Source of the DNA: Candidatus Yanofskybacteria bacterium
Lineage (GTDB): Bacteria > Patescibacteriota > Minisyncoccia > 2-02-FULL-40-12 > IGHO2-12-FULL-4
Direction: 5' to 3'
Assembly: GCA_016185525.1 (NCBI GenBank)
Contig: JACPNK010000002.1
Location: 11,616 to 75,615, forward strand
DNA: 64,000 nucleotides
A program made the position numbers and the translations under genes. Below are positions 4,793 to 58,447 of the stretch, one piece after another (positions within the stretch are counted from its first letter, which is position 1; each line of letters starts with the position of its first letter). The notes below the pieces were generated by a model that was given only the letters and a program-made list of their open reading frames with translations, searched no databases and was not told where the DNA came from.

Positions 4793-4803
4793 AGGTCAAT
4801 TTA

Positions 4804-4825
4804 AAAAGCCCTTTTGGGGCTTTTG
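4804..4825 (-). terminator. intrinsic terminator of the 4827..5105 gene
   Basis: aaaagccc-tttt-gggctttt hairpin with a T-run on the - strand. It is near-identical to the terminator at 5276. Confidence 0.6.
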
Positions 4826-4826
4826 T

Positions 4827-5105
4827 TTAGACAAAGGACTGATCGTGTTCGGCCAAGTTTCGTTCAGCCAGAGCCAGCCTTTCTTTGAGTTCGACAGCTT
4901 CTTTTTCCAATTTTTCTTCCCGGTTCAGACTCGCGGACAGAAGCTGGTTATAAACGTCGCAAATTTCCACAAAAGACGAGACAAGTCTTAGAGTGTTAGG
5001 AGAGACAGATGTTTTTCTTTCCATTATTTCAAGAGCACCCTTTAAAAATGCGAGGTTTTTTCGGGCTTTTGCTAATTCCTCCAACGTCTTTTCTCTTTCC
5101 GTCAT
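4827..5105 (-). CDS. small coiled-coil protein, paralog A (about 93 aa)
   Basis: The C-terminus LNREEKLEKEAVELKERLALAERNL is about 70% identical to the 5301..5582 product. The start at 5105 was chosen by homology and because the same aggaaag SD precedes both paralogs. The track ORF extends to 5174. Confidence 0.55.
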   Translation of the reverse strand: MTEREKTLEELAKARKNLAFLKGALEIMERKTSVSPNTLRLVSSFVEICDVYNQLLSASLNREEKLEKEAVELKERLALAERNLAEHDQSFV

Positions 5106-5236
5106 TTTCTTTCCTAAAAAGATTGAGATTTCAAGAACTTGTCGTAGTTTACTATTTTTTATTTTTTGTGTCAAATTCTGAACCTGGACAATTCATTTGA
5201 CTTTATTCCATTTAATACAACCATCAAGGTCCAAAC

Positions 5237-5261
5237 ACCATCAAGGTTAAACCTTGATGGT
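5237..5261. promoter_or_regulatory. 25-bp perfect palindrome accatcaaggttaaaccttgatggt plus an extra half-site at 5221-5232
   Basis: Read directly from the sequence. It lies 60-130 nt upstream of the 4827..5105 gene. Confidence 0.5.
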
Positions 5262-5275
5262 CGTTGACAGATTTT

Positions 5276-5298
5276 AAAAGCCCTTTTAGGGCTTTTGT
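5276..5298 (-). terminator. intrinsic terminator of the 5301..5582 gene
   Basis: aaaagccc-tttta-gggctttt hairpin followed by a T-run. Confidence 0.6.
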
Positions 5299-5300
5299 TT

Positions 5301-5582
5301 TTAACTCCAACTTGGAGAACGACTCAAGTCTTGCTCAGCTTGGGCCAGCTTTTCTTTGAGTTCGGCTACTTCTTTCTCTAACTTTTCTTCCCGGTCGAGG
5401 CTTTCTGACCAGTATGTTGAAAGTAAATCATTTAAGTTTAAGAAAGCGTCGGTAATCGCAAGTATCTCTGGATGATTTCCTAACAAAGCTGGAATAGATA
5501 TTCTGGCATTGAGACTATGAATCTTAGATTTGCTTAATTCTTGTTTTGACTTTTCTCTCGGTGTAAGTTCTTTTTCTTTCAC
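5301..5582 (-). CDS. small coiled-coil protein, paralog B (93 aa, GTG start)
   Basis: LDREEKLEKEVAELKEKLAQAEQDL. An SD gaggaaag lies 5 nt before the GTG. Confidence 0.55.
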   Translation of the reverse strand: MKEKELTPREKSKQELSKSKIHSLNARISIPALLGNHPEILAITDAFLNLNDLLSTYWSESLDREEKLEKEVAELKEKLAQAEQDLSRSPSWS

Positions 5583-12070: not shown

Positions 12071-13337
12071 CAAGTGGATTCCTTGGCCTGGAATTGGCCA
12101 AGTTAATAAAAAACCCATTGCCTCTATAGTTGATAACCACTATTTCCGACGCTTAAGCGACAAGCGTCAGCTCTCTCTTGCTTATTTAGTTTTTCCTGGC
12201 GCAACTCATGACCGTAGACAGCATTCTCTGGGCGCCTACTACAGGACGTCTCAATTTACTGCTAAAATGGTCAAGCTAGGTGTTTTGACCAGCCAAGAAG
12301 AGGTCAACTTAAATCTTTATGCTCTTTTGCATGATATTGGACATGGCCCATTGTCCCATGTTATAGAAGTTTTTACTGAACGTAACCATCATACCAACGG
12401 ACTGAAGATTTTGGACAAGATGGTTGATGACATTGAAGCCTGCGGCGGTGATCTGGAATTGATAAAAAAATATATGTCCAGACAGGATCCCAAAGGCAAA
12501 ATTGTTGATGACAAAAATTTTGGCATGGAAAAACTTGACTACCTGATCAGGGATCAGGAATCTACACAGTTTGGACCCAATATCCGCTATTGCGTAGAAA
12601 GTGTTTTCAATCACCTTGATTTTAGAGACGGCCAGTTGGCGGTTGACCTCAAAGCCCTGGATTCGGCCATGGAAATCCAAAGGGCTTATATTTATTTTTA
12701 TCGCAATGTGCATTTGGAGAAAAGCAACTATCTTATCCAGCGCTTTATGCAGAAACTCATCTATCAGCTGTTGCATACGTCTCGCAATCAAGGCGGTATA
12801 GGCGAAGACGAGCTGTGGGAGATGGTAGACGGCGACTTGATTCATGCTTTGAAAAAATGCCAGAACGAATCCGTGAGAAACGGCATAAAAATTTTTGATA
12901 GCGGTGTCAAGCATTTTCCCAAAACGGCCATATCAATACGTCTTAAGAGTTATGGTTGGCTTGAAAGACGTGCCGGCAAATCGATTGATGTTTACGAGGC
13001 TGACAAAGAATTTTTTGAAAGATTTTATGAAAAATCCAGCCCAAGAGATCTGGAAATTATTGAGTCGCAAATCGCTAAGGCGCTTGGTTTAGAAAGCTGG
13101 CAGGTGGCGGTTAGTCACATTGTTGAGCGTGATCGCTTTATCCCACAGGATATTCTGTTTTTTGACGGTCCGAAAACCTACTCTTTAAAGGAAAAAGATC
13201 CGGCCTATTTTAACTTACTTGACAGAGAAGTGGAGAAGTATCTCTGTGTTAGAATTTGTGCTGTGCCGGAACACAGGCAGAAAGTTACAACGGAGAAAGA
13301 AAGACTGCTTAATATGCTTTTGAACTATGTCAAATAA
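12051..13337 (+). CDS. HD-domain dNTP triphosphohydrolase-like protein (dGTPase/SAMHD1-like, COG1078-type)
   Basis: FRRLSDKRQLSLAYLVFPGATHDRRQHSLGAYY and LLHDIGHGPLSH, with a DYLIRD motif downstream. Confidence 0.65.
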   Translation: MNLNQNDKWIPWPGIGQVNKKPIASIVDNHYFRRLSDKRQLSLAYLVFPGATHDRRQHSLGAYYRTSQFTAKMVKLGVLTSQEEVNLNLYALLHDIGHGPLSHVIEVFTERNHHTNGLKILDKMVDDIEACGGDLELIKKYMSRQDPKGKIVDDKNFGMEKLDYLIRDQESTQFGPNIRYCVESVFNHLDFRDGQLAVDLKALDSAMEIQRAYIYFYRNVHLEKSNYLIQRFMQKLIYQLLHTSRNQGGIGEDELWEMVDGDLIHALKKCQNESVRNGIKIFDSGVKHFPKTAISIRLKSYGWLERRAGKSIDVYEADKEFFERFYEKSSPRDLEIIESQIAKALGLESWQVAVSHIVERDRFIPQDILFFDGPKTYSLKEKDPAYFNLLDREVEKYLCVRICAVPEHRQKVTTEKERLLNMLLNYVK

Positions 13338-14407: not shown

Positions 14408-14480
14408 GCGCATTTTAATTTGCTAAAGTCGTTTTTTTGTAATAAAATAGGTTTTAATTAGGTAGACTATCAAATACTGT

Positions 14481-14718
14481 CGGTCTTCCAAATATTGCTT
14501 TTTCCGGACGCTCGTCCCGCTCCAGCGGCGGGACTCGCTCTTTGTGAGATGTGGATTCTGTCCAGCTTAAGAAAGCTGTCCAGACCACGCCATTGAACTT
14601 ACAGCTTATCCGTCCCTATCGGTCCGAATGGGCTGTAAGATTCAATGGCTAGCAACCTGCCTGTCGGCAGACAGGTCCACAACTCACAGAGCCTACAAAA
14701 GCAATATTTGGAAGACCG
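14481..14718. mobile_element. MITE-like element with perfect 22-bp terminal inverted repeats (cggtcttccaaatattgcttttt / aaaagcaatatttggaagaccg)
   Basis: The TIRs can be read directly from the sequence. The 195-nt interior is hairpin-rich and GC-rich and has no ORF. A 25-nt fragment of the same end recurs at 25455-25479. Confidence 0.45.
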
Positions 14719-14780
14719 TAAACTAACAATCCGCCCGTAGCCCTGCCTGCCGGCAGGCAGGTCAGTTGGCGAAGATTAGT

Positions 14781-15017
14781 ATGTTTTTTGTGTACGTTCT
14801 TAAAAGTGAAAAAGATGGCAATCTTTACATTGGTATGACCAACGACTTGAAACGTAGATTGAATGAGCATAATTGTGGCAGAAACTTGTCTACAAAATAC
14901 AGAAGACCATTTAGGTTAATATACAGTGAAAAATTAAACGACAGGGTCAAGGCTAGATATAGAGAAAAGTTTTTAAAGTCTGGCACTGGAAGAGAGTGGA
15001 TTAAAAATAACTTATAA
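14781..15017 (+). CDS. GIY-YIG nuclease domain protein (YhbQ-like, 78 aa)
   Basis: FVYVLKSEKDGNLYIGMTNDLKRRLNEHN is a GIY-YIG motif. The ATG at 14781 is preferred over the TTG at 14766 in the track. Confidence 0.7.
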   Translation: MFFVYVLKSEKDGNLYIGMTNDLKRRLNEHNCGRNLSTKYRRPFRLIYSEKLNDRVKARYREKFLKSGTGREWIKNNL

Positions 15018-15030
15018 CAATTATAACCAT

Positions 15031-15105
15031 CCGCCCGTAGCTCAGCTGGTAGAGCAACTCCCTTTTAAGGAGATGGTCGTTGGTTCGACTCCAACCGGGC
15101 GGACA
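15031..15105 (+). tRNA. tRNA-Lys (anticodon TTT), CCA not encoded
   Basis: Cloverleaf folded by hand. Acceptor ccgcccg/cgggcgg, D-stem gctc/gagc, anticodon loop cTTTTaa, T-arm gttgg-ttcgact-ccaac, discriminator A. Confidence 0.8.
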
Positions 15106-23086: not shown

Positions 23087-23101
23087 TGACACAAAAAACG
23101 T

Positions 23102-23260
23102 AGTCATTATGCCTCTGAGGGCAGTAAAAGTTGCGAGGGGCACGGTTTGTCAACGACCAGGCACTTTCGCAGAAAGTGCCTGGCTCTTGACAAGACGAGC
23201 AACTTTTTCTGATGACAAAACCTCGCTGGGGTTTTGGAAGTCCCGAAGAGGTATAATGAC
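23102..23260 (+). repeat. structured repeat family A, copy 1
   Basis: Aligns with the copies at 41492-41669 and 53719-53884. It has a conserved aaagttgcgag...gtttgtcaacgacc / ctcttgacaag.cgagcaacttt core and covarying stems. Orientation is given relative to the other copies. Confidence 0.6.
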
Positions 23261-23266
23261 GAAGTT

Positions 23267-25270: not shown

Positions 25271-25432
25271 AAGCTTCGCAGATACAGCCTTTTCGGTACT
25301 TTCGCTGATTCCAGCGATCAGCTCACTCACTGTTCGCTCGGGTTGTGGAAGGAGTCGAAGAAATATTATACTCCTTCCAACCTAGCCAACCGCGAGCTCA
25401 CAGTGACCTCAAAGGCTGTATCTGCTACGCTC
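25271..25432 (+). repeat. structured repeat family B, copy 1
   Basis: Terminal dyad cgcagatacagcctttt / aaaggctgtatctgc. Three internal hairpins covary with the copies at 55001 and 31454. Confidence 0.6.
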
Positions 25433-25454
25433 TCTAGTCACACTAACAAGAAAC

Positions 25455-25479
25455 GAGCGTCCGGAAAAAGCAATATTTG
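25455..25479 (+). repeat. solo 25-nt fragment matching the end of the MITE-like element at 14481-14718
   Basis: gagcgtccggaaaaagcaatatttg is the reverse complement of 14488-14512. Confidence 0.5.
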
Positions 25480-25529
25480 CCAGACTAACCGCATCTCTAC
25501 TTTAAAAAAGTATTATTTTATGAAACAAT

Positions 25530-31445: not shown

Positions 31446-31453
31446 CTTACCAA

Positions 31454-31613
31454 AGCACAGCAGATACAGTCTTTGAGGTCGCTGTGAGCCTGCGGTTTGC
31501 TTGGTTGGCTGGAGTATAATTATTCTGTAACTCCAGCCAAAACCCAGACGAACAGCGAGTGAGTCTGCCGCTGGAGCAGACGAAGGTACCGAAAAGACTG
31601 TATCCGCGAAGCT
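31454..31613 (-). repeat. structured repeat family B, copy 3 (inverted orientation)
   Basis: Its reverse complement aligns along the whole length with the copies at 55001 and 25271. Confidence 0.6.
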
Positions 31614-31630
31614 TTGCTGGGACAGCTTTT

Positions 31631-33013: not shown

Positions 33014-33069
33014 ACTAAACTGTGTTATTGTTCTAATCGCATACTCGTTAAGTTAAAAAGGGGAAACTT

Positions 33070-33402
33070 TTGAATAAGTTTAGAGAAGTTTTTTTTAGTG
33101 GTTTGTTTGTGGCCGTTGTGTTGGTGACCATCTGGTTTCTTGGGCCAGGAAGCACGAGAATTAACTTTCGTTACGGGTATTATATAAGAGGGCTTAAAGA
33201 AAAAACTGTGGTTGTTCTTGCTTATAACCCGGAATTAGTCAGCTCATTTAGTTTTCATTATTCGACGACTGACGACATGGTATCTCCTGAAATCTTGTTT
33301 ATTTTCAAAGATAAAGAAACTTTTACTCAAGCCGGGCTTATGTTACAAACAGCAGTTAATGACATAGAAAAAGTAACCTCGTCTTCTCGGTCTTCTCGTT
33401 AA
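33070..33402 (+). CDS. hypothetical protein with N-terminal TM (TTG start)
   Basis: ORF with an SD aaaagggga. No family recognised. Confidence 0.35.
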   Translation: MNKFREVFFSGLFVAVVLVTIWFLGPGSTRINFRYGYYIRGLKEKTVVVLAYNPELVSSFSFHYSTTDDMVSPEILFIFKDKETFTQAGLMLQTAVNDIEKVTSSSRSSR

Positions 33403-33426
33403 TTCCCCTGTGGGGAATTTTTATTG
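33403..33426 (+). terminator. intrinsic terminator
   Basis: ttcccc-tgt-ggggaa hairpin plus a T-run. Confidence 0.6.
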
Positions 33427-33457
33427 TTTGATTTTTAAAAAGTTGTTATTATTGTCT

Positions 33458-33485
33458 TAATACTTAATACTTAATACTTAATACT
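33458..33485. repeat. heptanucleotide microsatellite (TTAATAC)x4 in the promoter region of the LOG-family gene
   Basis: Read directly from the sequence. It ends 6 nt before the ATG at 33492. Confidence 0.7.
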
Positions 33486-33491
33486 TAACAT

Positions 33492-41478: not shown

Positions 41479-41491
41479 TCAACAATAATAA

Positions 41492-41669
41492 AATTAGAGG
41501 TAGTGTCTCTGAGGGCAGTAAAAGTTGCGAGGGGCATGGTTTGTCAACGACCCCTCCCCAGTTTTTCAAAGTAAAACTGGGGAGGGGCTCTTGACAAGAC
41601 GAGCAACTTTTTCTGATGAAGAATCCTCGCTGGGGATTCTGAAGTCCCGAAGAGATGCTACCTCTAATT
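41492..41669 (+). repeat. structured repeat family A, copy 2
   Basis: Perfect 12-bp outer dyad aattagaggtag / ctacctctaatt. Same core as copies 1 and 3. Confidence 0.6.
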
Positions 41670-41689
41670 TTATTAAAGTGATTCGGAAT

Positions 41690-42349
41690 ATGGTAAACAG
41701 AGTTATCAAAAAATTAGTTTTATCTGATTTTTTATTGAACTCCGCCTTTGGCCTTTTAGCGCCGATTTTTGCTATTTTTATTTTGAGAAATATAGAAGGC
41801 AGTACTTTGAGAGTAGTCGGTCTGGCCACGACTTTTTACTGGATTGCCAGAACCTTAACGACTGTTCCATTGTCAAGGTTTATGGACAGAACCGATGGCG
41901 AGCGCGATGAATTTTATTTTATTGTTGTCGGCTCGTTTATGATGTCCTCTATCCCGCTGTTCTTTTTACTGGCAAAAGTTCCTTGGCATATTTATCTCAT
42001 ACAATTTATCTCCGGGTTGTCGGCCTCAATGGCTGTGCCTTCCTGGCGTATTTTATTTACGGACCATCTGGACAAAGGGTCTACCGGCTACGAATGGTCT
42101 CTGGAAGATATAGCCATCGGAGTTTCGGTGGGCATCAGCGCTTATCTGGGGTCTTTGCTGGCGGATAAGTTCGGCTTTCATACAGTTTTTATATTTGTTT
42201 CTATGTTGGGTTATTTAGGCACGATGATTTTAATTCCCATCTCTCGTGATGCTAAAAATCTGGCTCAAATAAAAAAAGAACATCGTCTGGGGGCCATAAG
42301 GCTTAAACGAAAAAAAATATTGCCCCGCAAAGTTGATGGCATAAAATAA
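41690..42349 (+). CDS. 6-TM MFS-like membrane protein
   Basis: LSRFMDRTDGERDEF resembles MFS motif A. The start is set downstream of the repeat-derived N-terminal extension. Confidence 0.4.
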   Translation: MVNRVIKKLVLSDFLLNSAFGLLAPIFAIFILRNIEGSTLRVVGLATTFYWIARTLTTVPLSRFMDRTDGERDEFYFIVVGSFMMSSIPLFFLLAKVPWHIYLIQFISGLSASMAVPSWRILFTDHLDKGSTGYEWSLEDIAIGVSVGISAYLGSLLADKFGFHTVFIFVSMLGYLGTMILIPISRDAKNLAQIKKEHRLGAIRLKRKKILPRKVDGIK

Positions 42350-44420: not shown

Positions 44421-46148
44421 ATGAACTCTGATCTCTCTAAAATTTTAAATGAGCTGGCGGTTCTGCTGGATATTAAGGGTGTGGAATTTAAACCTCGGGC
44501 TTACGAGAAAGTCGCCTATATTATTGAGTCTTTAGCCGAAGAAGTTGACGAGATTTACAAAAAAGGCGGACTTAAGGCTCTGGAGGAAATTCCCGGAGTA
44601 GGCAGGGGTATTGCCGAAAAAATTGAGGAGTTTATAAAAACAGGAAAAATTCACGAACTGGAAAAACTAAAAACCGAGTTTCCTGTTGACATAAACGGCC
44701 TTAAAAAAGTGGAAGGGCTTGGCCCTAAGACAATCAAAAGACTTTACAACGAACTGGGCATTAAAGATTTAGGCTCCTTAAAAAAGGCGGCCGAAGCCGG
44801 CAAGCTTAAAAAATTGGAAGGCTTGGGCGAAAAGTCAGAGCAAAAAATTTTGAAAAGCATCAGTTTTTTGGAGCAATTCCGTGGCCGTTTTTCAATTGCC
44901 GCTGCCTTACCGCTTTCCCGAAGAATCGTGGAAAGATTGCGTTCTTTGCCGGAAGTTAAAAAAGCCGAGTTCGCCGGCTCAATTGCAAGAATGCAGGAAA
45001 CTGTCGGCGACTTGGATATTTTAGTGATTTCAGACAAGCCATCAAAAGTGATGGATTTTTTTGTGAAAATGCCGGAAGTGCAAGAGGTAACCGCTAAAGG
45101 CGACACCAAAACTTCAGTGCGTTTGAAAGTTGGCATGGATGCTGATTTGCGGGTTGTGGCGCCGGAATCTTTCGGCGCCGCTCTGCAGTATTTTATCGGC
45201 GATAAATACCACAATATAGCTGTCCGTGAGATTGCCGTTAAGAAAGGCTACAAACTTAACGAGTATGGCTTATTTGAAGAATCAGGAATTAAGAATCATG
45301 AATTAAGGGTGGCGGGCGAGACAGAAGAAGAAATCTACAAAACCCTCGGAATGCAATGGATGCCGTCGGAGATGAGAACTGACCACGGCGAAATTGAGGC
45401 GGCCCTTCAAAATAAATTGCCAGACTTGGTCGGTTATGAAGATTTGAAAGGCGACCTTCAAGTTCAGACCGACTGGACTGACGGCGACAACTCAATAAGA
45501 GAGATGGCAGAAGCGGCAAAAAAGCAGGGACTGGAATATATCTGTATTACGGACCATACCGCCGCTTTGGCTATGACCGGTGGCAATGATGAAAAGAGAC
45601 TCTTAAAACAAATGGCCGAGATTGATAAAGTTCAAAAAGAAGTTTCCGGAATTAAGATATTGAAAGGAGCTGAAGTTGATATTCACAAAGACGGCACTTT
45701 AGATATTGACGATGAAACTTTGGCAAAACTGGATGTGGTCGGCATTTCTGTCCACTCAAGATTTAAAATGACCGAAAAAGAGATGACCAAAAGAATTGTC
45801 AGAGCCATGGAAAATCCCAATGCAGATATCTTGTTTCATCCGACTGGCCGTCTGGTGCAAAAAAGAGAAGCTTATAAAATTGATATGGCGGAAATTATTA
45901 AAACCGCCAAAAAAACCGGAACCATACTTGAGGCCAATGCCTATCCGGAACGTCTGGACTTGAAAGACGAGTATATTAGGCAGGCGTTAGAATCAGGTGT
46001 TAAAATTTCTATTGACTCCGATGCTCACTCAACAAGCCATTTTCAATTTTTAGAGTACGGCATCGGCCAAGCCCGCCGCGGCTGGGCAGAGAAGAAAGAT
46101 GTGATAAATACAAGAAACTGGGAAGAGATGCTGGGGTTATTGAAATAA
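44421..46148 (+). CDS. polX: DNA polymerase X family protein with C-terminal PHP domain
   Basis: HhH motifs (GVGRGIAEKI, GLGPKTIKRL), a Pol beta-like nucleotidyltransferase core and a PHP His/Asp-rich C-domain. Confidence 0.8.
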   Translation: MNSDLSKILNELAVLLDIKGVEFKPRAYEKVAYIIESLAEEVDEIYKKGGLKALEEIPGVGRGIAEKIEEFIKTGKIHELEKLKTEFPVDINGLKKVEGLGPKTIKRLYNELGIKDLGSLKKAAEAGKLKKLEGLGEKSEQKILKSISFLEQFRGRFSIAAALPLSRRIVERLRSLPEVKKAEFAGSIARMQETVGDLDILVISDKPSKVMDFFVKMPEVQEVTAKGDTKTSVRLKVGMDADLRVVAPESFGAALQYFIGDKYHNIAVREIAVKKGYKLNEYGLFEESGIKNHELRVAGETEEEIYKTLGMQWMPSEMRTDHGEIEAALQNKLPDLVGYEDLKGDLQVQTDWTDGDNSIREMAEAAKKQGLEYICITDHTAALAMTGGNDEKRLLKQMAEIDKVQKEVSGIKILKGAEVDIHKDGTLDIDDETLAKLDVVGISVHSRFKMTEKEMTKRIVRAMENPNADILFHPTGRLVQKREAYKIDMAEIIKTAKKTGTILEANAYPERLDLKDEYIRQALESGVKISIDSDAHSTSHFQFLEYGIGQARRGWAEKKDVINTRNWEEMLGLLK

Positions 46149-52078: not shown

Positions 52079-52933
52079 ATGTCTTGGCAAACCTTGGGTT
52101 TTCAGAAAAACAAGGAATTTTTTGAAAAAATTGTCCGAAATGGTGAGCTTGGCCACGCTTATTTATTTACAGGTCAAGAGATGATAGGCAAGAAAAGATT
52201 TGCTCTGGATCTGGCGGGTCTGGTCAATAGTTCTGGAATTGACTTTGAGAATGACCCAAATCTTTTGATTCTGGGTGGTGAAAATGGAATCTCCATTGAC
52301 CAAGTTAGAGATCTTAAAAAGTTTTTAAGTTTTAAGCCTTATAGCGGTAGTTACAAAATTGCTGTCATAAACGATTGCCATCTTATGTCCCAAGAGGCGG
52401 CTAATGCCCTTTTGAAGGTTTTGGAAGAGCCGGCTTCTCATTCTTTAATTATTCTAGTTACTTCAAATCCAAATTCTTTACTGCCGACAATTTATTCCCG
52501 TTGCGAAGAGATAAAGTTTGAGCCCCATATCCGCAGTCAACTACTTGGTCATTTAAAAGACATGGGACTAAGCCAGACTCAAGCTGAATTTTTGGCCGAT
52601 TTTTCCAATGGCCGTCCGGGACTAGCTTTCAGGTTAAAAGAAAAAAACAGCTTTAAAGAAATAAAAACAAAACTGGAGCAGTTTAATAAACTTTTAAAAT
52701 CAGATATAAATGAACGCTTTAATTTTGCGGAGAAAGCCTTACAGGAAAAAGAAGACCAAAACTTAAGCACGCTACTTTTGTACTGGATGTTTTATTTAAG
52801 GTCAGATTTGTCTAAGAGCTTGAAAATAAACCGAGGTAAAGTTTTAAAAAGCCTGCTGGAAGTGAATTATATTTTGTCCAAACCGCAATATAACCATAGG
52901 TTGGCTTTTGAAAATTTTTTATTGAGCTTGTAG
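52079..52933 (+). CDS. holB: DNA polymerase III delta' subunit-like AAA+ clamp-loader protein
   Basis: GHAYLFTGQEMIGKK P-loop-like block and SRC-type motifs (TSNPNSLLPTIYSRC). Confidence 0.65.
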   Translation: MSWQTLGFQKNKEFFEKIVRNGELGHAYLFTGQEMIGKKRFALDLAGLVNSSGIDFENDPNLLILGGENGISIDQVRDLKKFLSFKPYSGSYKIAVINDCHLMSQEAANALLKVLEEPASHSLIILVTSNPNSLLPTIYSRCEEIKFEPHIRSQLLGHLKDMGLSQTQAEFLADFSNGRPGLAFRLKEKNSFKEIKTKLEQFNKLLKSDINERFNFAEKALQEKEDQNLSTLLLYWMFYLRSDLSKSLKINRGKVLKSLLEVNYILSKPQYNHRLAFENFLLSL

Positions 52934-53164
52934 TTGGCATATTGATTCTTCAGTATGCTCACTCCGCCAGCGTCTCCGTTCGCTCGCGACGTCGGCAAAT
53001 TTGAAATGAAGTTAGGAAAAATTATACTTCATTTCAACCATGCAATTTGCCTCCTCAGCGACTTCAGAACCAATATGCCAACTACAAGCTAAGTCTGGTG
53101 ACAGCGAGTTTTCGCTAGAAGAAAACGAGTATCCGTAAAAAACAACAATTACAAAGCAAAAACC

Positions 53165-53710
53165 ATGGACTTAAATCAGCACAAAAAAGAGTTTGAAAAA
53201 ATTTTGGAACACTTTAGGGTGGAGGCGGCTTCGATTCGCACCGGACGAGCGGCCTCTTCTTTGGTTGACGAAATTATCGTGGAAAATTATGGCGCCAGAT
53301 ATAAGTTGAAAGAATTGGCGACTATTACTATTCCGGAACCAAAGACGATTTTAATACAACCGTGGGACAAAAGCGCCATCAGCGCCATTGAGAAGGCTAT
53401 CAAATCAAGCAATCTCGGTCTTAATCCAGTTTCCGACGCTCAAGGTATAAGGCTAATTCTGCCGTCTCTGACAGAAGAAAGAAGAAAAGAGTTTATTAAG
53501 CTATTGGGGCAAAAAACTGAAGAAGCCAGACAGAAAATACGGCATGTTAGGGGCAAAATTTGGGAAGATGTCCAAGAAAAAGAAAAAGCCCGTCAGATAG
53601 GTGAAAACGAAAAATTTAGAACAAAAGAAGACCTGCAAAAACTAGTTGACGAGTACAATCAAAAAATTGAAAAAGTTGAAAAAAAGAAGGAAGAGGAGTT
53701 GATGAGTTAG
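53165..53710 (+). CDS. frr: ribosome recycling factor
   Basis: Full-length RRF pattern (LE..R...G.A....VD.I.V..YG...L). Confidence 0.85.
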   Translation: MDLNQHKKEFEKILEHFRVEAASIRTGRAASSLVDEIIVENYGARYKLKELATITIPEPKTILIQPWDKSAISAIEKAIKSSNLGLNPVSDAQGIRLILPSLTEERRKEFIKLLGQKTEEARQKIRHVRGKIWEDVQEKEKARQIGENEKFRTKEDLQKLVDEYNQKIEKVEKKKEEELMS

Positions 53711-53718
53711 ATTGTTGA

Positions 53719-53884
53719 GGGGTAGCACTTCTGAGGACGCTCAAAGTTGCGAGCAGCACGGTTTGTCAACGACCAGGCACTTTCTTAAAATCTTAGAAAG
53801 CGCCTGGCTCTTGACAAGGCGAGCAACTTTGCGCGATGAGAAAAACTCGCTGGGTTTTTCGAAGGTCCGAAGAGGTGCTACCCC
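53719..53884 (+). repeat. structured repeat family A, copy 3
   Basis: Outer dyad ggggtagcac / gtgctacccc. Same conserved core as the other copies. Confidence 0.6.
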
Positions 53885-53900
53885 GATACAACCAGAAGAA

Positions 53901-54983: not shown

Positions 54984-55000
54984 GTACTCGTTAAGTTCAA

Positions 55001-55162
55001 AAGCTTCGCAGATACAGCCTTTTCGGTACTTTCGCTGACTCCAGCGATCAGCTCACTCGCTGTTCGCCTGGGTTTTGTCTGGAGTTACAGAATAATTATA
55101 CTCCAGCCAACCAAGCAAACCGCAGGCTCACAGCGACCTCAAAGGCTGTATCTGCTGCGCTT
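55001..55162 (+). repeat. structured repeat family B, copy 2
   Basis: About 90% identical to the reverse complement of 31454-31613 and about 75% identical to 25271-25432. Confidence 0.6.
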
Positions 55163-55171
55163 TTTATATAA

Positions 55172-56413
55172 ATGCGTTTATCACAATTATTCACCCGCAC
55201 CGAAAAAGAGGCGCCAAAAGATGAGGCAAGCGTAAATGCTCAACTTTTGGAAAGAGCCGGTTTTGTTTACAAAAATAATTCTGGAATTTACACCTATCTG
55301 CCTTTGGGTTGGCGGGTGATAAATAAAATCACGGCGATTATAAGAGAAGAAATGAACGCGATCGGCGGACAGGAGATGTTTATGCCGGCTTTAGTAGACA
55401 AAAGGTATATGGACTCCACTGGCCGCTGGGATGTGGAGGTGGCTTTTGAAGCCAAGGGCAAAAAAGAAAACGAAGCAAGGTTTACTCTCGGCTGGACTCA
55501 CGAGGAGGTTATCACAGAAATTGCCTCTAAGTATATCAGCTCATACAAAGACTTGCCGTTCTCTTCTTATCAGATACAAACTAAATTCCGCAACGAGCCC
55601 CGAGCGAAATCCGGCCTTTTACGGGGCAGAGAATTTTTAATGAAAGACTTGTATAGTTTTCATGCCTCGGAAGAAGATTTTTTGAGATATTACGAAAAAG
55701 TCCGCGGCGCTTATCACAAAATTTTTGAAAGATGCGGCTTGAAATCTTTCTACACTTTAGCGGCAGGCGGAGACTTTACGGCAAGCAATACTCATGAGTT
55801 TCAGGTTTTGGCGCCGGTGGGTGAGGATACTATTTTTATCTGCTCTAAATGCGAGTATGCCGAAAATAAAGAGATTTCTTCTCTAGCTAACGGTGGTTTG
55901 TGCTTAAAATGCGGCGGCAAAGTCAGGGAAGAAAAGTCCGTTGAAGTCGGCAACATTTTTCCTTTAGGCACTAAATACACCGAAGCTTTAAATTTACAAT
56001 TTACGGATGAACGGGGGAATAAAGAATTTGTGGTCATGGGTTCATATGGCATTGGTCTGGGCAGACTGATGGGAACTGTTGCCGAAATTTATCATGACAA
56101 AAACGGATTAATCTGGCCGGAGTCAATTGCGCCTTATAAATTTATTTTAATAACTCTAGACCACACCAAAGAAGAAGGGGATAAGTTATATCAAAAACTT
56201 TTGGAACAAGGGGCTGAAGTTTTATACGACGACAGAGAAGACAAAACCGCTGGCGAGAAATTTGCCGATGCCGATTTGCTGGGCATACCGATCAGGCTTG
56301 TAATTAGCCCCAAAACGTTAAAAGAAAAAAGCGTAGAGATGAAGATGAGAGGAAAAAAGGTGACAGAATTAACCAAACTCAAAGAAGTTGAAGAAAAACT
56401 GGACTTAAGCTAG
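55172..56413 (+). CDS. proS: proline--tRNA ligase (short archaeal-type)
   Basis: Class II motifs, a Zn-binding C-terminal CSKCEYAEN...CLKCGG cluster and an anticodon-binding domain. Confidence 0.8.
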   Translation: MRLSQLFTRTEKEAPKDEASVNAQLLERAGFVYKNNSGIYTYLPLGWRVINKITAIIREEMNAIGGQEMFMPALVDKRYMDSTGRWDVEVAFEAKGKKENEARFTLGWTHEEVITEIASKYISSYKDLPFSSYQIQTKFRNEPRAKSGLLRGREFLMKDLYSFHASEEDFLRYYEKVRGAYHKIFERCGLKSFYTLAAGGDFTASNTHEFQVLAPVGEDTIFICSKCEYAENKEISSLANGGLCLKCGGKVREEKSVEVGNIFPLGTKYTEALNLQFTDERGNKEFVVMGSYGIGLGRLMGTVAEIYHDKNGLIWPESIAPYKFILITLDHTKEEGDKLYQKLLEQGAEVLYDDREDKTAGEKFADADLLGIPIRLVISPKTLKEKSVEMKMRGKKVTELTKLKEVEEKLDLS

Positions 56414-57642
56414 TTACCAATTGGGCTATTGACACCATGGCATCAAGTTTGCTATACTGATAAAGCTCACCCAAAGAAGGGTGAGGGGCCAAAGGAGGGG
56501 CCCTGAAAACAAAAAACCCTCTCAACATAACCAACCACTCTTGTTGAAAAACAACGGAGGTGAGATTATGACTTGAAACCAAGCGCTTAGGCGCACGGTC
56601 TAAAAACCGCGGAACTTATAGTACCCAGGCGGGGAGCTGGTAAAATAAGGCTAAAAACCAGCTCCCACCCATTAAATAGTCCCGCTCTTTTGTTCTTTAT
56701 ATATTTTATTTAAAGAGCGGGGCTGCTTAATGGGTAATCCAAGGTTTACCCTTGGAAACATATCCTTGGAAACGCTTGACAGGGGTAGGGCGGTTGTGAT
56801 ATACTTAGAGTATAAGGTTGAAAACTAGTAAAAAGCCTTGCAAAATACTACTTTCTTTATGTAGAAATATGTAAAGGAAGTCGGATTTTGCGAGACTGAA
56901 GAATGTGGGAGAGCCACAAGGCAAGGGCCAACCAGCCTAATAAATCTCCCAAAAAAACTTAAGTCTCGCTCGATTTTCTGTCTCCAGCACAGTACTAGGG
57001 AGACAGAAACTGTGATGCGGCACAGTACCAAGACGGAGAGTAGCCGCTTCTACTCTCCACAGTTATAGCGAGGACCTGCTGAAGCTCGAAGTAGAACTTC
57101 CCTTGTGGGTGGTTCCGGGCGGGTTGAAGTTTCAAAACCCCAGCAGGTTCCTCGTTACTTTTAAAAAATAACGGCTCTGAAAAATAGCTTAAAAGATCTC
57201 ACTTATTAAAATTTTCTAGACAATCTGTCTAAGACTGAATTACTGATTTTTGAGGCTATTTTGCGGAGCTGGCGTCCCGCTCCCGATGTTGCGCGCCTTC
57301 TTGGCAAGCAGTACCAGACGCAGTACCAGACCAGAAGGACATGAATAGAAGTACAACATCGGGGGTAACGAAGAAGCACCAAACCCCAGGGATGCCCGCT
57401 CCGCTCGCTCTTTATATTTATTTTTTATTGCTACTAGCTATAGCTATTTTCTATTGCTAGTCCCTACACCGAATGGTGTAGGGCTTCGCAAGATATTTCT
57501 ATCGGAAATCAGAAATGGTGGAAGATGGAAGTATCTTGCGGAGGAGCAACAACCATCAGCAAGGGGTGCGGGGGAGCCATTAAGGAGGCGACCCCTCATA
57601 CCCTTGCCTCTTCCGCAGTTTAGTAAAGCTGTTTGTTTCACC

Positions 57643-57706
57643 GAGTGGGCTGGCTTGTAAGTTGTATTGCAAGCAAAGATGCTGTGCCAGCCCACTCACC
57701 TTTTTT
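57643..57706 (+). terminator. strong intrinsic terminator (12-bp GC-rich stem gagtgggctggc/gccagcccactc plus TTTTTT)
   Basis: Read directly from the sequence. Confidence 0.65.
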
Positions 57707-57982
57707 AAAATAAAGTCTTTCAGAAATAGTTCACAAAAATTTGCGAGTTATTTCTGTGAGACTGGTAATCGTCTAAAGGATAGGGCACCTCTTTCTGACT
57801 GAGCGGTCTTTGGGGGAAAAACCTGTTCGATTCAGGTAGCCAGTCTCACACTTCGCAAAATGTTTCTAAGTTATTGGAAATATTTTGCGGAGTGGGACGG
57901 CGACGTACTACAGGCGAAGGCGCATCACCCAAGGCCCTGTCGTAAGCAAACGCCTCCCCGCTCCGCAGTTAGTATTATTACG

Positions 57983-58018
57983 GCCCTATTGGAAACCCCG
58001 ATAGGGCTTTTTTCTTTT
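57983..58018 (+). terminator. intrinsic terminator (gccctat-tggaaaccccg-atagggc plus TTTTTT)
   Basis: Read directly from the sequence. Confidence 0.65.
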
Positions 58019-58060
58019 GCATAATTTCGGGATTTTGTTTAGAGTAACAAAAAAGCCCAA

Positions 58061-58447
58061 ATGACAAATGAACAAATGACAAATCAAATCCAAAGCTCAA
58101 ATGTCAAAAAATACGATTTGGAAGAAAGAACAGCAGTTTTGGGGCAAAACATAATCGATTTTGTAAGAACTTTATCTAAAAACTCAATTACTAATCCGCT
58201 TATTAGTCAAGTAGTTAGAGCTGGAACAAGCATCGGAGCAAACTACATGGAAGCAGACGCATCCGAATCAAAAAAAGATTTTCTACACAAAATTGGTATC
58301 TGCAAAAAAGAAAGCAAAGAAACGATGCACTGGCTAAGGATGATAGCGCATGCTATGCCTGAAAAACAAAACCAATGCAGGCAACTGTGGAAAGAAGCGC
58401 ATGAACTTTTATTGATATTTTCCAGTATTGCTAAAAGAAAGTATTAG
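58061..58447 (+). CDS. four-helix-bundle protein (23S rRNA intervening-sequence-type, TIGR02436-like)
   Basis: VVRAGTSIGANYMEADASESKKDFLHKIGICKKESKETMHWLRM matches the family signature. The gene is bracketed by imperfect inverted repeats rich in aatgacaaatga (58043-58075 and 58449-58496). Confidence 0.7.
   Translation: MTNEQMTNQIQSSNVKKYDLEERTAVLGQNIIDFVRTLSKNSITNPLISQVVRAGTSIGANYMEADASESKKDFLHKIGICKKESKETMHWLRMIAHAMPEKQNQCRQLWKEAHELLLIFSSIAKRKY

Follow-up and report, generated by a model that had tools for sequence, protein, structure and literature searches.

The window analysed here is a 64,000-nt stretch of contig JACPNK010000002.1 (positions 11,616 to 75,615; assembly GCA_016185525.1) from a Candidatus Yanofskybacteria bacterium, and it contains three copies of a structured intergenic repeat that is referred to as family B. 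Family B is one subfamily of a superfamily that comprises the types A, B, C and D, the copies of which are homologous and have a conserved three-way-junction fold. The superfamily is a non-autonomous, mobile, structured repeat in which the unpaired motifs are conserved and the stems, including the terminal stem, are free to change as long as they remain paired. The explanation that best accounts for these elements is a REPIN-like family of non-autonomous mobile elements that depend for mobilisation on their fold, probably in single-stranded DNA, and we assign a probability of roughly 0.6 to this reading.

Copies and fold of family B

A repeat search identified three B copies that are 78-90% identical in pairwise comparisons (B1, B2 and the inverted B3, Table 1), essentially at the coordinates given in an earlier, sequence-only reading of the window. 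An 18-base core pattern of family B occurs three times, against 0.02 occurrences expected by chance. The flanking genes are those that the earlier reading named, and they encode UvrB/RuvA, RseP/ProRS and a presenilin-like SPP protein/beta-CASP RNase J-like protein. All of the genes flanking B copies are housekeeping genes, and B3 is antisense to both of its neighbours.

The three B copies adopt a common shape that features an outer helix of 4-5 bp, a 3x3 internal loop and a 15-bp terminal stem, which closes a three-way junction bearing a short hairpin, hp1, and a long arm. The minimum free energies of the B copies are -75 to -82 kcal/mol with z = -8.5 to -9.6, and none of 200 shuffled sequences folds equally well. 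Covariation was assessed with the three window copies and two outside copies, one from a metagenome-assembled genome (MAG, locus L003) and one from a metagenome (L005). Both-sided changes are present in 21 of the 57 predicted pairs, compared with 7.9 +/- 2.0 in shuffles, and 0 of 500 shuffles reach the observed count. Additionally, 95.8% of the B cells are paired, compared with 34-48% when the partners are slid by 1-3 columns.

Comparison of the copies showed that the three examples of compensatory stem changes quoted in the sequence-only reading are correct. The terminal dyad that was described as shared by all copies is present in each of them; however, it is not identical, since B3 carries two changes, one of which is compensated and one of which yields a G-U pair. 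Rfam 15 searched at the gathering threshold found only tRNA-Lys in the window, and searches at E <= 1 for the whole window and at E <= 10 for B1 gave no match on any element. The earlier view of B is borne out in that it is an intergenic repeat which is structured, has no counterpart in Rfam and shows compensatory changes that are genuine, and each copy folds far better than shuffled sequence (z about -9). B2 looks chimeric, as the identity matrix and the hp1 table show that its hp1 is like that of B1 and B6 and that the remainder is like B3 and B4, where B4 and B6 are copies from a related MAG that is introduced below.

Architecture of the superfamily

A covariance model, R1, was built from the five B copies and searched against the window and related loci. 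The sample consists of about 24 copies from about eight genomes in roughly 260 kb, which includes the window and the fetched loci. In the window R1 matches a fourth, divergent element at 52924-53094 (type D, 67 bits), and in L003 it matches an element of a longer kind, type C. It scores the window's three elements of family A at 40-44 bits on the minus strand only, and their plus strands give partial matches below 20 bits. B had been proposed to be a second family that is independent of A. This is not the case, as A and B share the architecture and the junction motifs, with A lying on the opposite strand. When A1 is read on the minus strand it is oriented like B, and its hp1 is CAAAACC-CCAGCGA-GGTTTTG.

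The R1 matches and the shared modules join A, B, C and D into one superfamily, and the hp1 table is the clearest evidence. The module order that is common to the four types starts with the outer helix, the 3x3 loop and the terminal stem, which are followed by a UC/UC loop (a 3x3 loop in C), a 3-bp helix GGK/MCC and the strand ACUUYC. The last part consists of hp1, the strand UC(A/G)CUC and the long arm. Across 18 copies hp1 features ten different stems that are all perfectly Watson-Crick (GCTGA, GTCTGC, GAGATTT, CAAAACC, AGAATCC, GAAAAAC, GTCCCGC, GTTTCTT, GCCTTT and GTCTTTT), and the hp1 loop YCCAGCG(A) and the flanking TC...TC are invariant across the same 18 copies. Hairpins with the full hp1 loop-and-flank signature are confined to the elements in the ~244 kb examined. 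The terminal stems are unrelated among A, B, C, D and a divergent copy, B5. Within subfamilies the terminal stems vary by compensatory substitution and the internal loops are constant.

The long subfamily is represented in the window by C1, in which hp1 is GTCCCGC-TCCAGCG-GCGGGAC. A separate alignment of eight C copies has compensatory changes in 38 of 65 pairs. D1 has a 25-bp terminal stem and keeps CCAGCG without the hp1 stem, and the holB stop codon falls within its 5' arm; a second D copy is located at L017 11979-12133. A derivation of the D1 5' arm from the native 3' end of holB was considered and dropped, as the match of ~11/18 is not significant and the terminal stems of the C-type copies are clearly inherited.

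In total the window contains eight full copies (three A, three B, one C and one D) and one 42-nt fragment, which amount to ~1.5 kb and exceed the number of relatives recognised in the sequence-only reading. The window copies are 164-247 nt long, they have no open reading frame (ORF), and each has a terminal dyad of 11-25 bp. Pattern scans and BLAST found no superfamily copies in viral contigs, phage records or plasmid records, and a literature search on such repeats in Saccharibacteria and the candidate phyla radiation (CPR) returned nothing relevant.

Table 1. Superfamily copies and related features of the window
Feature	Position	Strand	Location	Details
B1	25271-25436	+	between uvrB start (ATG 25261, minus strand) and ruvA (25530)	R1, 192.7 bits
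B1 hp1 junction hairpin	25304-25322		within B1	loop TCCAGCG
B2	55001-55166	+	between rseP (stop 54983) and proS (ATG 55172)	R1, 200.2 bits
B3	31452-31615	-	SPP-like gene (stop 31445) / RNase J-like gene (ATG 31631)	R1, 199.2 bits
A1	23093-23262	-	between uvrB and truB	R1, 41.4 bits, minus strand only
A2	41486-41675	-	between subtilase and MFS genes
A3	53709-53890	-	between frr (stop 53710) and rseP (ATG 53901)
C1 (long subfamily)	14474-14720	+		B architecture with extra hairpins; fold z = -12.8
D1	52925-53090	+	between holB and frr	R1, 67.4 bits, E = 5e-18; fold z = -9.6
Solo fragment, 42 nt	25453-25494	-	beside B1	terminal piece of a C-type copy, truncated at the hp1 boundary
19-nt string	54985-55003	+	abuts B2	TACTCGTTAAGTTCAAAAG; repeat at 33042-33060 (+)

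Turnover of copies at gene junctions

The UvrB and RNase J-like proteins encoded in the window are 100% identical to NCBI proteins from a MAG that bears the label Candidatus Yanofskybacteria (contig of 165,968 bp). Syntenic loci were gathered through homologues of RRF, UvrB and RNase J. The nucleotide identity of the coding sequence to the window is ~82% for L006-L009 and for L023, 74% for L010, and 68% for both L012 and L017. The UvrB proteins of L020, L021 and L022 are 94%, 84% and 86% identical to that of the window. L021 and L003 are loci of one MAG (GCA_964479745.1, CAYZNJ01), which is labelled 'uncultured Candidatus Saccharibacteria'. This label looks wrong; besides the UvrB identity given for L021, the RNase J of this MAG is 77% identical to that of the Yanofskybacteria MAG, and the gene order is syntenic.

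The holB/frr gap, which holds D1, is 229 nt in the window vs 10-12 nt in L006-L009, and the frr/rseP gap, which holds A3, is 191 nt vs 5-6 nt in the same loci. The mreB/mreC junction shows the opposite arrangement, with a 3-nt gap in the window, overlapping genes in L012 and a 227-nt C copy in L010 that is self-complementary from the stop codon through to the start codon. The rseP/proS junction has B2 in the window, a C copy in the other orientation together with another copy in L017, ORFs in L010 and L012, sequence unrelated to B in L007, and 177 nt with no R1 match in L018/L019. At uvrB/truB, L021 and L023 have orthologues of A1 (that of L023 is 89% identical), L022 has an empty gap of 22 nt, and L020 has a different element. 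The A2 copy is reduced to a decayed remnant of ~55 nt in L023; the A2 gap has a C-type copy in L010 and is empty in L012 and L017.

The ruvA/uvrB junction has B1 in the window only, and B1 is absent from L020, L021, L022 and L023. L020 and L021 have an unrelated palindromic element of ~200 nt, and L023 has a full-length C copy that is orthologous to the 42-nt fragment of the window. The last 82 nt of this copy (L023 3426-3507) are 89% identical to window 25448-25529. Since the full-length C copy of L023 aligns with this part of the window, the comparison indicates that B1 replaced most of a resident C copy, which it overwrote from the left boundary, leaving 42 nt.

The SPP/RNase J gap has B copies in like orientation in the window (B3) and in L021 (B6), and in L023 it has two genes and no B copy. 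B6, from the other sub-lineage, is 87% identical to B1 and B2 and 80% identical to B3 at the same site, and B3 is 93% identical to B4, which is located elsewhere in the L021 MAG. The similarity between copies does not track position. A solo 22-nt B end is found at L010 15412-15433.

Such patterns can only arise if copies insert, are lost, overwrite one another and undergo recombination or conversion among themselves. The gain, loss, replacement and recombination of copies at gene junctions far outpace the divergence of the flanking genes, and they take place on a time scale shorter than about 15-20% nucleotide divergence of the genes. The earlier impression that the element behaves like inserting DNA agrees with the comparison of junctions across relatives.

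Other small features were observed at the same junctions. A palindromic repeat of ~200 nt without the CCAGCG hairpin, family 'E' (L020 1052-1295 and 3291-3501; L021 9754-10000), fills the ruvA/uvrB and uvrB/truB gaps of close relatives, which are the B1 and A1 sites in the window, and the window itself has no E copy. The rseP/proS gap of L007-L009, the RRF protein of which is 95% identical to that of the window, consists of 234 nt unrelated to B (L007 2474-2707), in which the 3' end of rseP is repeated (ATACGATTTTTTTAAAGA occurs twice) and a terminal dyad AAAGAGC/GCTCTTT is present; this may be another small element. Between D1 and the frr start, the window has 75 nt (53091-53164) that are absent from relatives and contain the hairpin AGCGA-GTTTT-TCGCT. 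Downstream of A2, the start of the MFS gene (41687-41788) is 99% identical to L023 19355-19456, against a regional background of ~82%; this match covers only 102 nt before the contig end, and it may be a recent recombination tract.

Ends and target sites

No direct repeats were found flanking the 16 listed copies. No target-site duplication (TSD) was found in the occupied/empty comparisons for A3, D1 and C3, in which the junctions are AT-rich and the genomes diverged, and very short TSDs may have escaped detection. TSDs are detectable in this lineage, as is seen from a 76-nt mini-element at L021 ~12133-12208 with a clear 13-bp terminal inverted repeat (TIR, CCCGTACGAGAGT) and a 5-bp target duplication (CTCGC). 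This mini-element is nested within an A-type copy that is orthologous to A1.

The left flank of B1, GGCAAAAGTAAG, is native and common to L023, and the first AAG of B1 may therefore belong to the target and not to the element. The B copies are all preceded by ...AAAG followed by CTTYG, with the exception of B1, which has ...TAAG followed by CTTCG. As the AAG is native sequence in B1, insertion may loosely favour sites after AAAG. Among the listed copies the left flanks are heterogeneous.

A string from the flank of B2 had been reported to recur without the element and had been proposed as a possible mark of an empty target-like site. The recurrence itself holds (two occurrences of TACTCGTTAAGTTNAAAAG vs 0.02 expected); however, the second occurrence is at 33042-33060 and not at 33033-33051 as reported, and the interpretation as an empty site has no support. 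The 19-nt string is in the flank of no B copy other than B2, a 13-nt part of it lies at about 45253-45265 (minus strand) within the PolX coding sequence, and the true orthologous empty sites are without any such motif. The string is a paralogous 19-mer only, and it was rejected as a target site. Its second copy is located at the edge of a small gene at 33070-33402, which is absent from L023 and L021. This gene is an ORF for a 110-aa membrane protein (region 33014-33491) with the 19-nt string at its upstream edge, and the RNase J/SLOG junction without it is a 23-nt gap in L023 and a 140-nt gap in L021.

A classical miniature inverted-repeat transposable element (MITE) would be a deletion derivative of a TIR transposon that is moved by a DDE transposase through cut-and-paste, and its internal structure would be incidental. 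Small, ORF-less, multi-copy intergenic elements with a terminal dyad in every copy, for which both empty and occupied sites exist, are expected under this explanation. It is nevertheless unlikely, as the terminal stems differ completely between subfamilies and drift by compensation while the internal unpaired motifs stay constant, whereas a MITE would show the opposite. Covariation within single local hairpins, of which hp1 is an example, is needless for an enzyme that binds TIRs, and the three occupied/empty comparisons have no flanking direct repeat in a lineage where TSDs can be detected. Membership among the classical MITEs fails because the TIRs are variable and there is no TSD, and the fixed TIRs with TSDs of a transposase-mobilised MITE, which the sequence-only reading had named as a finding that would speak against its own interpretation, were not observed.

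Mobilisation and comparison with known systems

The REPIN-like reading proposes that the fold is kept since mobilisation would require it. The element in its folded state, most likely single-stranded DNA, would be the target of an enzyme that acts in trans and is encoded elsewhere, and recognition would occur via the constant hp1 loop and the junction, not via fixed terminal repeats. The closest mechanistic parallel would be the REPINs mobilised by RAYT, and compensatory changes that maintain a hairpin are documented in mobile REPIN DNA (PMC3116915). Like the REPIN/RAYT system (Y1 HUH, TnpA-REP), the superfamily is non-autonomous, gene-less, extragenic and multi-copy, forms long single-strand hairpins with compensatory changes, has no TSD, and would have its mobilising gene, if any, elsewhere in the genome. 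Unlike REPINs, it has no REP unit or GTAG-type head. In place of a symmetric doublet it forms a three-way junction that is asymmetric and bears only one hairpin with a constant loop, and it measures 165-250 nt, compared with about 80-110 nt for REPINs. Membership among the REPINs fails because REP units (two inverted palindromes and a spacer) were not found. Additionally, no RAYT (Y1_Tnp domain) is seen among the window ORFs, and the host belongs to the Patescibacteria and not to the Proteobacteria.

The conserved internal loops provide some indication of which strand would be folded. They read UC/UC, TC...TC and UUC/UGC on the B strand, and GA/GA and GAA/GCA on the complementary strand, which is the tandem sheared G-A type. 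Such loops are stable in DNA as in RNA. If one strand is the folded species, the complement of B as written is more likely to be it, as the predicted loops become tandem G-A loops there. Effects on the host, such as a stable hairpin in operon transcripts and a promoter-like box in some copies, would be secondary. They are probably by-products, since close relatives have functional versions of these junctions in which the element is absent.

Several points weigh against this reading. No transposition intermediate and no clean target-site signature was seen, and presence and absence of copies could result partly from deletion and recombination instead of active transposition. Pfam and NCBIfam scans of ~55 ORFs from the window and of 10 unannotated ORFs from relatives found no transposase, HUH, reverse transcriptase (RT) or integrase domain. 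The sample described above is small, and the scans of genome and metagenome collections, which used exact patterns and required exact matches, added just two further places for the family. In A, B and D, though not in C, the fold of the complementary strand is lower by 8-11 kcal/mol. An RNA would be equally compatible with the asymmetric loops that are conserved and with the tandem G-A loops of one strand.

The search for a mobilising gene also covered an autonomous partner insertion sequence with matching ends, which was found neither in the window nor in the ~260 kb examined. Two neighbouring ORFs were rejected as the mobiliser, a lineage-specific 681-aa ORF beside A2, which encodes a secreted Thr-rich surface protein, and a GIY-YIG ORF beside C1, which has no association with other copies. 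The latter is an 83-aa nuclease ORF (14766-15017) between C1 and tRNA-Lys (window 14726-15104). The 13 bases ATCCGCCCGTAGC at 15030-15042, made up of the base before tRNA-Lys and the first 12 bases of the tRNA, have a duplicate at 14729-14741, which is followed by a perfect 20-nt palindrome, CCTGCCTGCCGGCAGGCAGG. The region 14726-15104 looks like a small cassette that inserted in the 5' end of the tRNA and restored the gene.

Other mobile elements resemble the superfamily in part. The ends of IS200/IS605 elements and of their ORF-less derivatives (PATEs) are recognised by the transposase through structure (DNA hairpins) and not sequence; these elements have no TSD and transpose as single-stranded DNA. 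They differ in that they have no TIR, insert 3' of a fixed 4-5-nt target and are strand-biased with respect to replication, whereas in the superfamily the terminal dyad is long, the flank is not fixed and the copies of one replichore are split 4:4 in orientation. Membership among the IS200/IS605 PATEs fails on account of the terminal dyad, the absence of a fixed target and the absence of strand bias. The Correia elements of Neisseria, the enterobacterial ERIC/IRU and the Rickettsia palindromic elements (RPE) are fully self-complementary elements of 100-170 nt whose mobilisation is unknown or indirect. They occur in both orientations at gene boundaries, are co-transcribed, vary in presence between strains and sometimes contain promoter-like boxes. 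The superfamily is likewise self-complementary, is located at gene boundaries in both orientations, is present or absent between relatives and has an occasional promoter-like box. The Correia elements are bounded by fixed TIRs of 26 bp and show a TA duplication, and ERIC and RPE conserve their sequence, unlike the variable stems with constant loops of the superfamily. To our knowledge, none of the Correia, ERIC/IRU and Rickettsia palindromic elements has a branched fold with an invariant hairpin loop.

The superfamily may also be the substrate of an undescribed mobilisation system that recognises a folded single strand of DNA or RNA, with an enzyme that is neither a known DDE transposase nor RAYT. 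This is doubtful, and the REPIN-like reading is preferred to it. The cues for such a system would be the shape of the three-way junction, the constant YCCAGCG loop and the tandem G-A loops in place of terminal repeats, and new copies would home into gene junctions and resident elements. One form that it could take is a bacterial SINE-like retro-element, which is considered in the following section.

RNA, DNA and host function

The pairing in the elements is ~95% Watson-Crick (WC). The B strand has 1059 WC pairs, 60 GU pairs and 11 A-C mismatches, and the complementary strand has 1093, 52 and 17. When the copies are sorted by operon transcription, the transcribed strand has 57 GU pairs and 13 A-C mismatches and the other strand has 53 and 15. 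No G-U/A-C asymmetry is seen by element strand or by transcribed strand. The copies have no orientation preference relative to the flanking genes (about 10 to 9), as the sequence-only reading had noted, and the orientation in the window is 4:4 under a uniformly positive GC skew. A terminator scan found no intrinsic terminator in the elements. A promoter-like box, TTGnnn-16-TATACT, is present in 8 of 20 copies, compared with 2.2 expected, and it is a minor, non-essential feature. Selection that acts on a single transcribed RNA strand has thus left no sign, as follows from the Watson-Crick pairing, the equal G-U and A-C counts, the balanced orientation, the absence of a terminator and the fact that the box is not universal.

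Structured RNA genes or cis-acting RNA modules that spread by duplication, with a fold selected as RNA, are a rather improbable alternative to mobile DNA. Such an RNA could be a small RNA that binds protein, an element for processing or stability, or a three-way-junction ribozyme that has degenerated. The strong covariation and the invariant loops are consistent with it, one U-G pair is retained in 6 of 8 C copies, and the excess of promoter-like boxes points in the same direction. The use of covariation as an argument for an RNA gene fails, however, in view of the predominantly Watson-Crick pairing, the strand-equal G-U and A-C counts and the presence or absence of copies between close relatives. 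There is neither a transcription-linked orientation bias nor an excess of G-U pairs on the transcribed strand, a conserved terminator was not found, and truncated and decayed copies exist. Since the closest relatives are without copies at the same junctions, no copy is needed by its neighbour genes.

A hammerhead ribozyme was considered as one form of the RNA explanation. The complementary strand, with its tandem G-A loops, has the topology of a type III hammerhead, in which an open helix is followed by a hairpin, a 6-7-nt junction strand, a second hairpin and GA(A), and A-type copies read CUGAUGA-helix-GAA. B (CGAGUGA) and C (GAGCGA) depart from the hammerhead core, and CUGAUGA...GAA is confined to A1, A2 and A4, with A3 differing as well. 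Helix III cannot form the A15.1-U16.1 pair, no copy has this pair with an NUH site, and no Rfam model, including the hammerhead models, matches at E <= 1. The hammerhead was rejected, and the likeness is a resemblance only. A retron msr-msd non-coding RNA was also rejected, as the element is multi-copy, the flanking genes are all housekeeping genes and there is no reverse transcriptase nearby.

The placement of the copies raises the possibility that they are retained mainly for regulation in the host, where they could act as operon insulators, RNase III or processing sites, portable promoters or hairpins that keep stop and start codons together. The copies fill stop-to-start gaps almost exactly and often end 0-15 nt from the next start codon, their self-complementarity reaches the very ends of the insert, and some carry the promoter-like box. 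The tight fit is not itself evidence, since tiny gaps force any insert against both genes. The same junctions are element-free in relatives with flanking genes that are about 80% or more nucleotide-identical, other subfamilies and unrelated elements interchange in one gap, and 12 of 20 copies are without the box, all of which make a host device very unlikely. Least probable of all is a SINE-like retro-element, in which RNA of the complementary strand would be copied by an RT encoded elsewhere (of a group II intron, a diversity-generating retroelement or another source) with priming at the RNA 3' end: both solo fragments (25453-25494 and L010 15412-15433) retain the same end, which on the complementary, G-A-rich strand is the 3' end and which cDNA copies truncated at the 5' side would be expected to keep, and the structure and constant loops could serve as an RT recognition signal, but there are just two fragments, one of which is explained by B1 overwriting a C copy, there is no RT in the window, no 3' tail and no TSD, and the near-absence of G-U pairs is contrary to the prediction of RNA selection. 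A mobile DNA element that folds, probably as a single strand, stays the preferred reading.

Other features of the window

Three further regions of the window were noted. The region 56413-58060 is a 1.6-kb stretch without ORFs, which is the most GC-rich part of the window and has many hairpins. Conservation in parts of it exceeds that of the coding genes; its segment 57160-57271, for instance, is 93-95% identical to L010 and L018, compared with 74-76% in genes. The region has no Rfam match and no tRNA or tmRNA, and it probably holds one or more unannotated structured RNAs. It is followed at 58061-58447 by an ORF for a 23S-rRNA-intervening-sequence (four-helix-bundle) protein, with short (CAAATGA)-like repeats at the start and just past the end of the ORF, and there is no rRNA gene in the window. 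Positions 4799-5582 contain a 471-nt tandem duplication with two paralogous small ORFs (4827-5174 and 5301-5582, minus strand) that have no Pfam match, and the hairpin AAAAGCCCTTTTGGGGCTTTT is located beside each ORF.

Significance

Genomes of the Patescibacteria (CPR) are about 1 Mb and dense, and the usual description of them is that they contain little mobile DNA. One structured repeat superfamily takes up at least 2.3% of the window, where it is located exactly in the gaps between the stop and start codons of housekeeping operons. An RNA gene cannot be called from covarying stems and extreme folding z-scores alone, as mobile DNA can yield both. The repeats visibly break metagenome assemblies, with one metagenome contig ending inside B1, and the covariance-model seed and the defining motifs can now be used to annotate them. 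The constant loop on a freely varying stem in a three-way junction is a candidate recognition signal for the mobilising enzyme.

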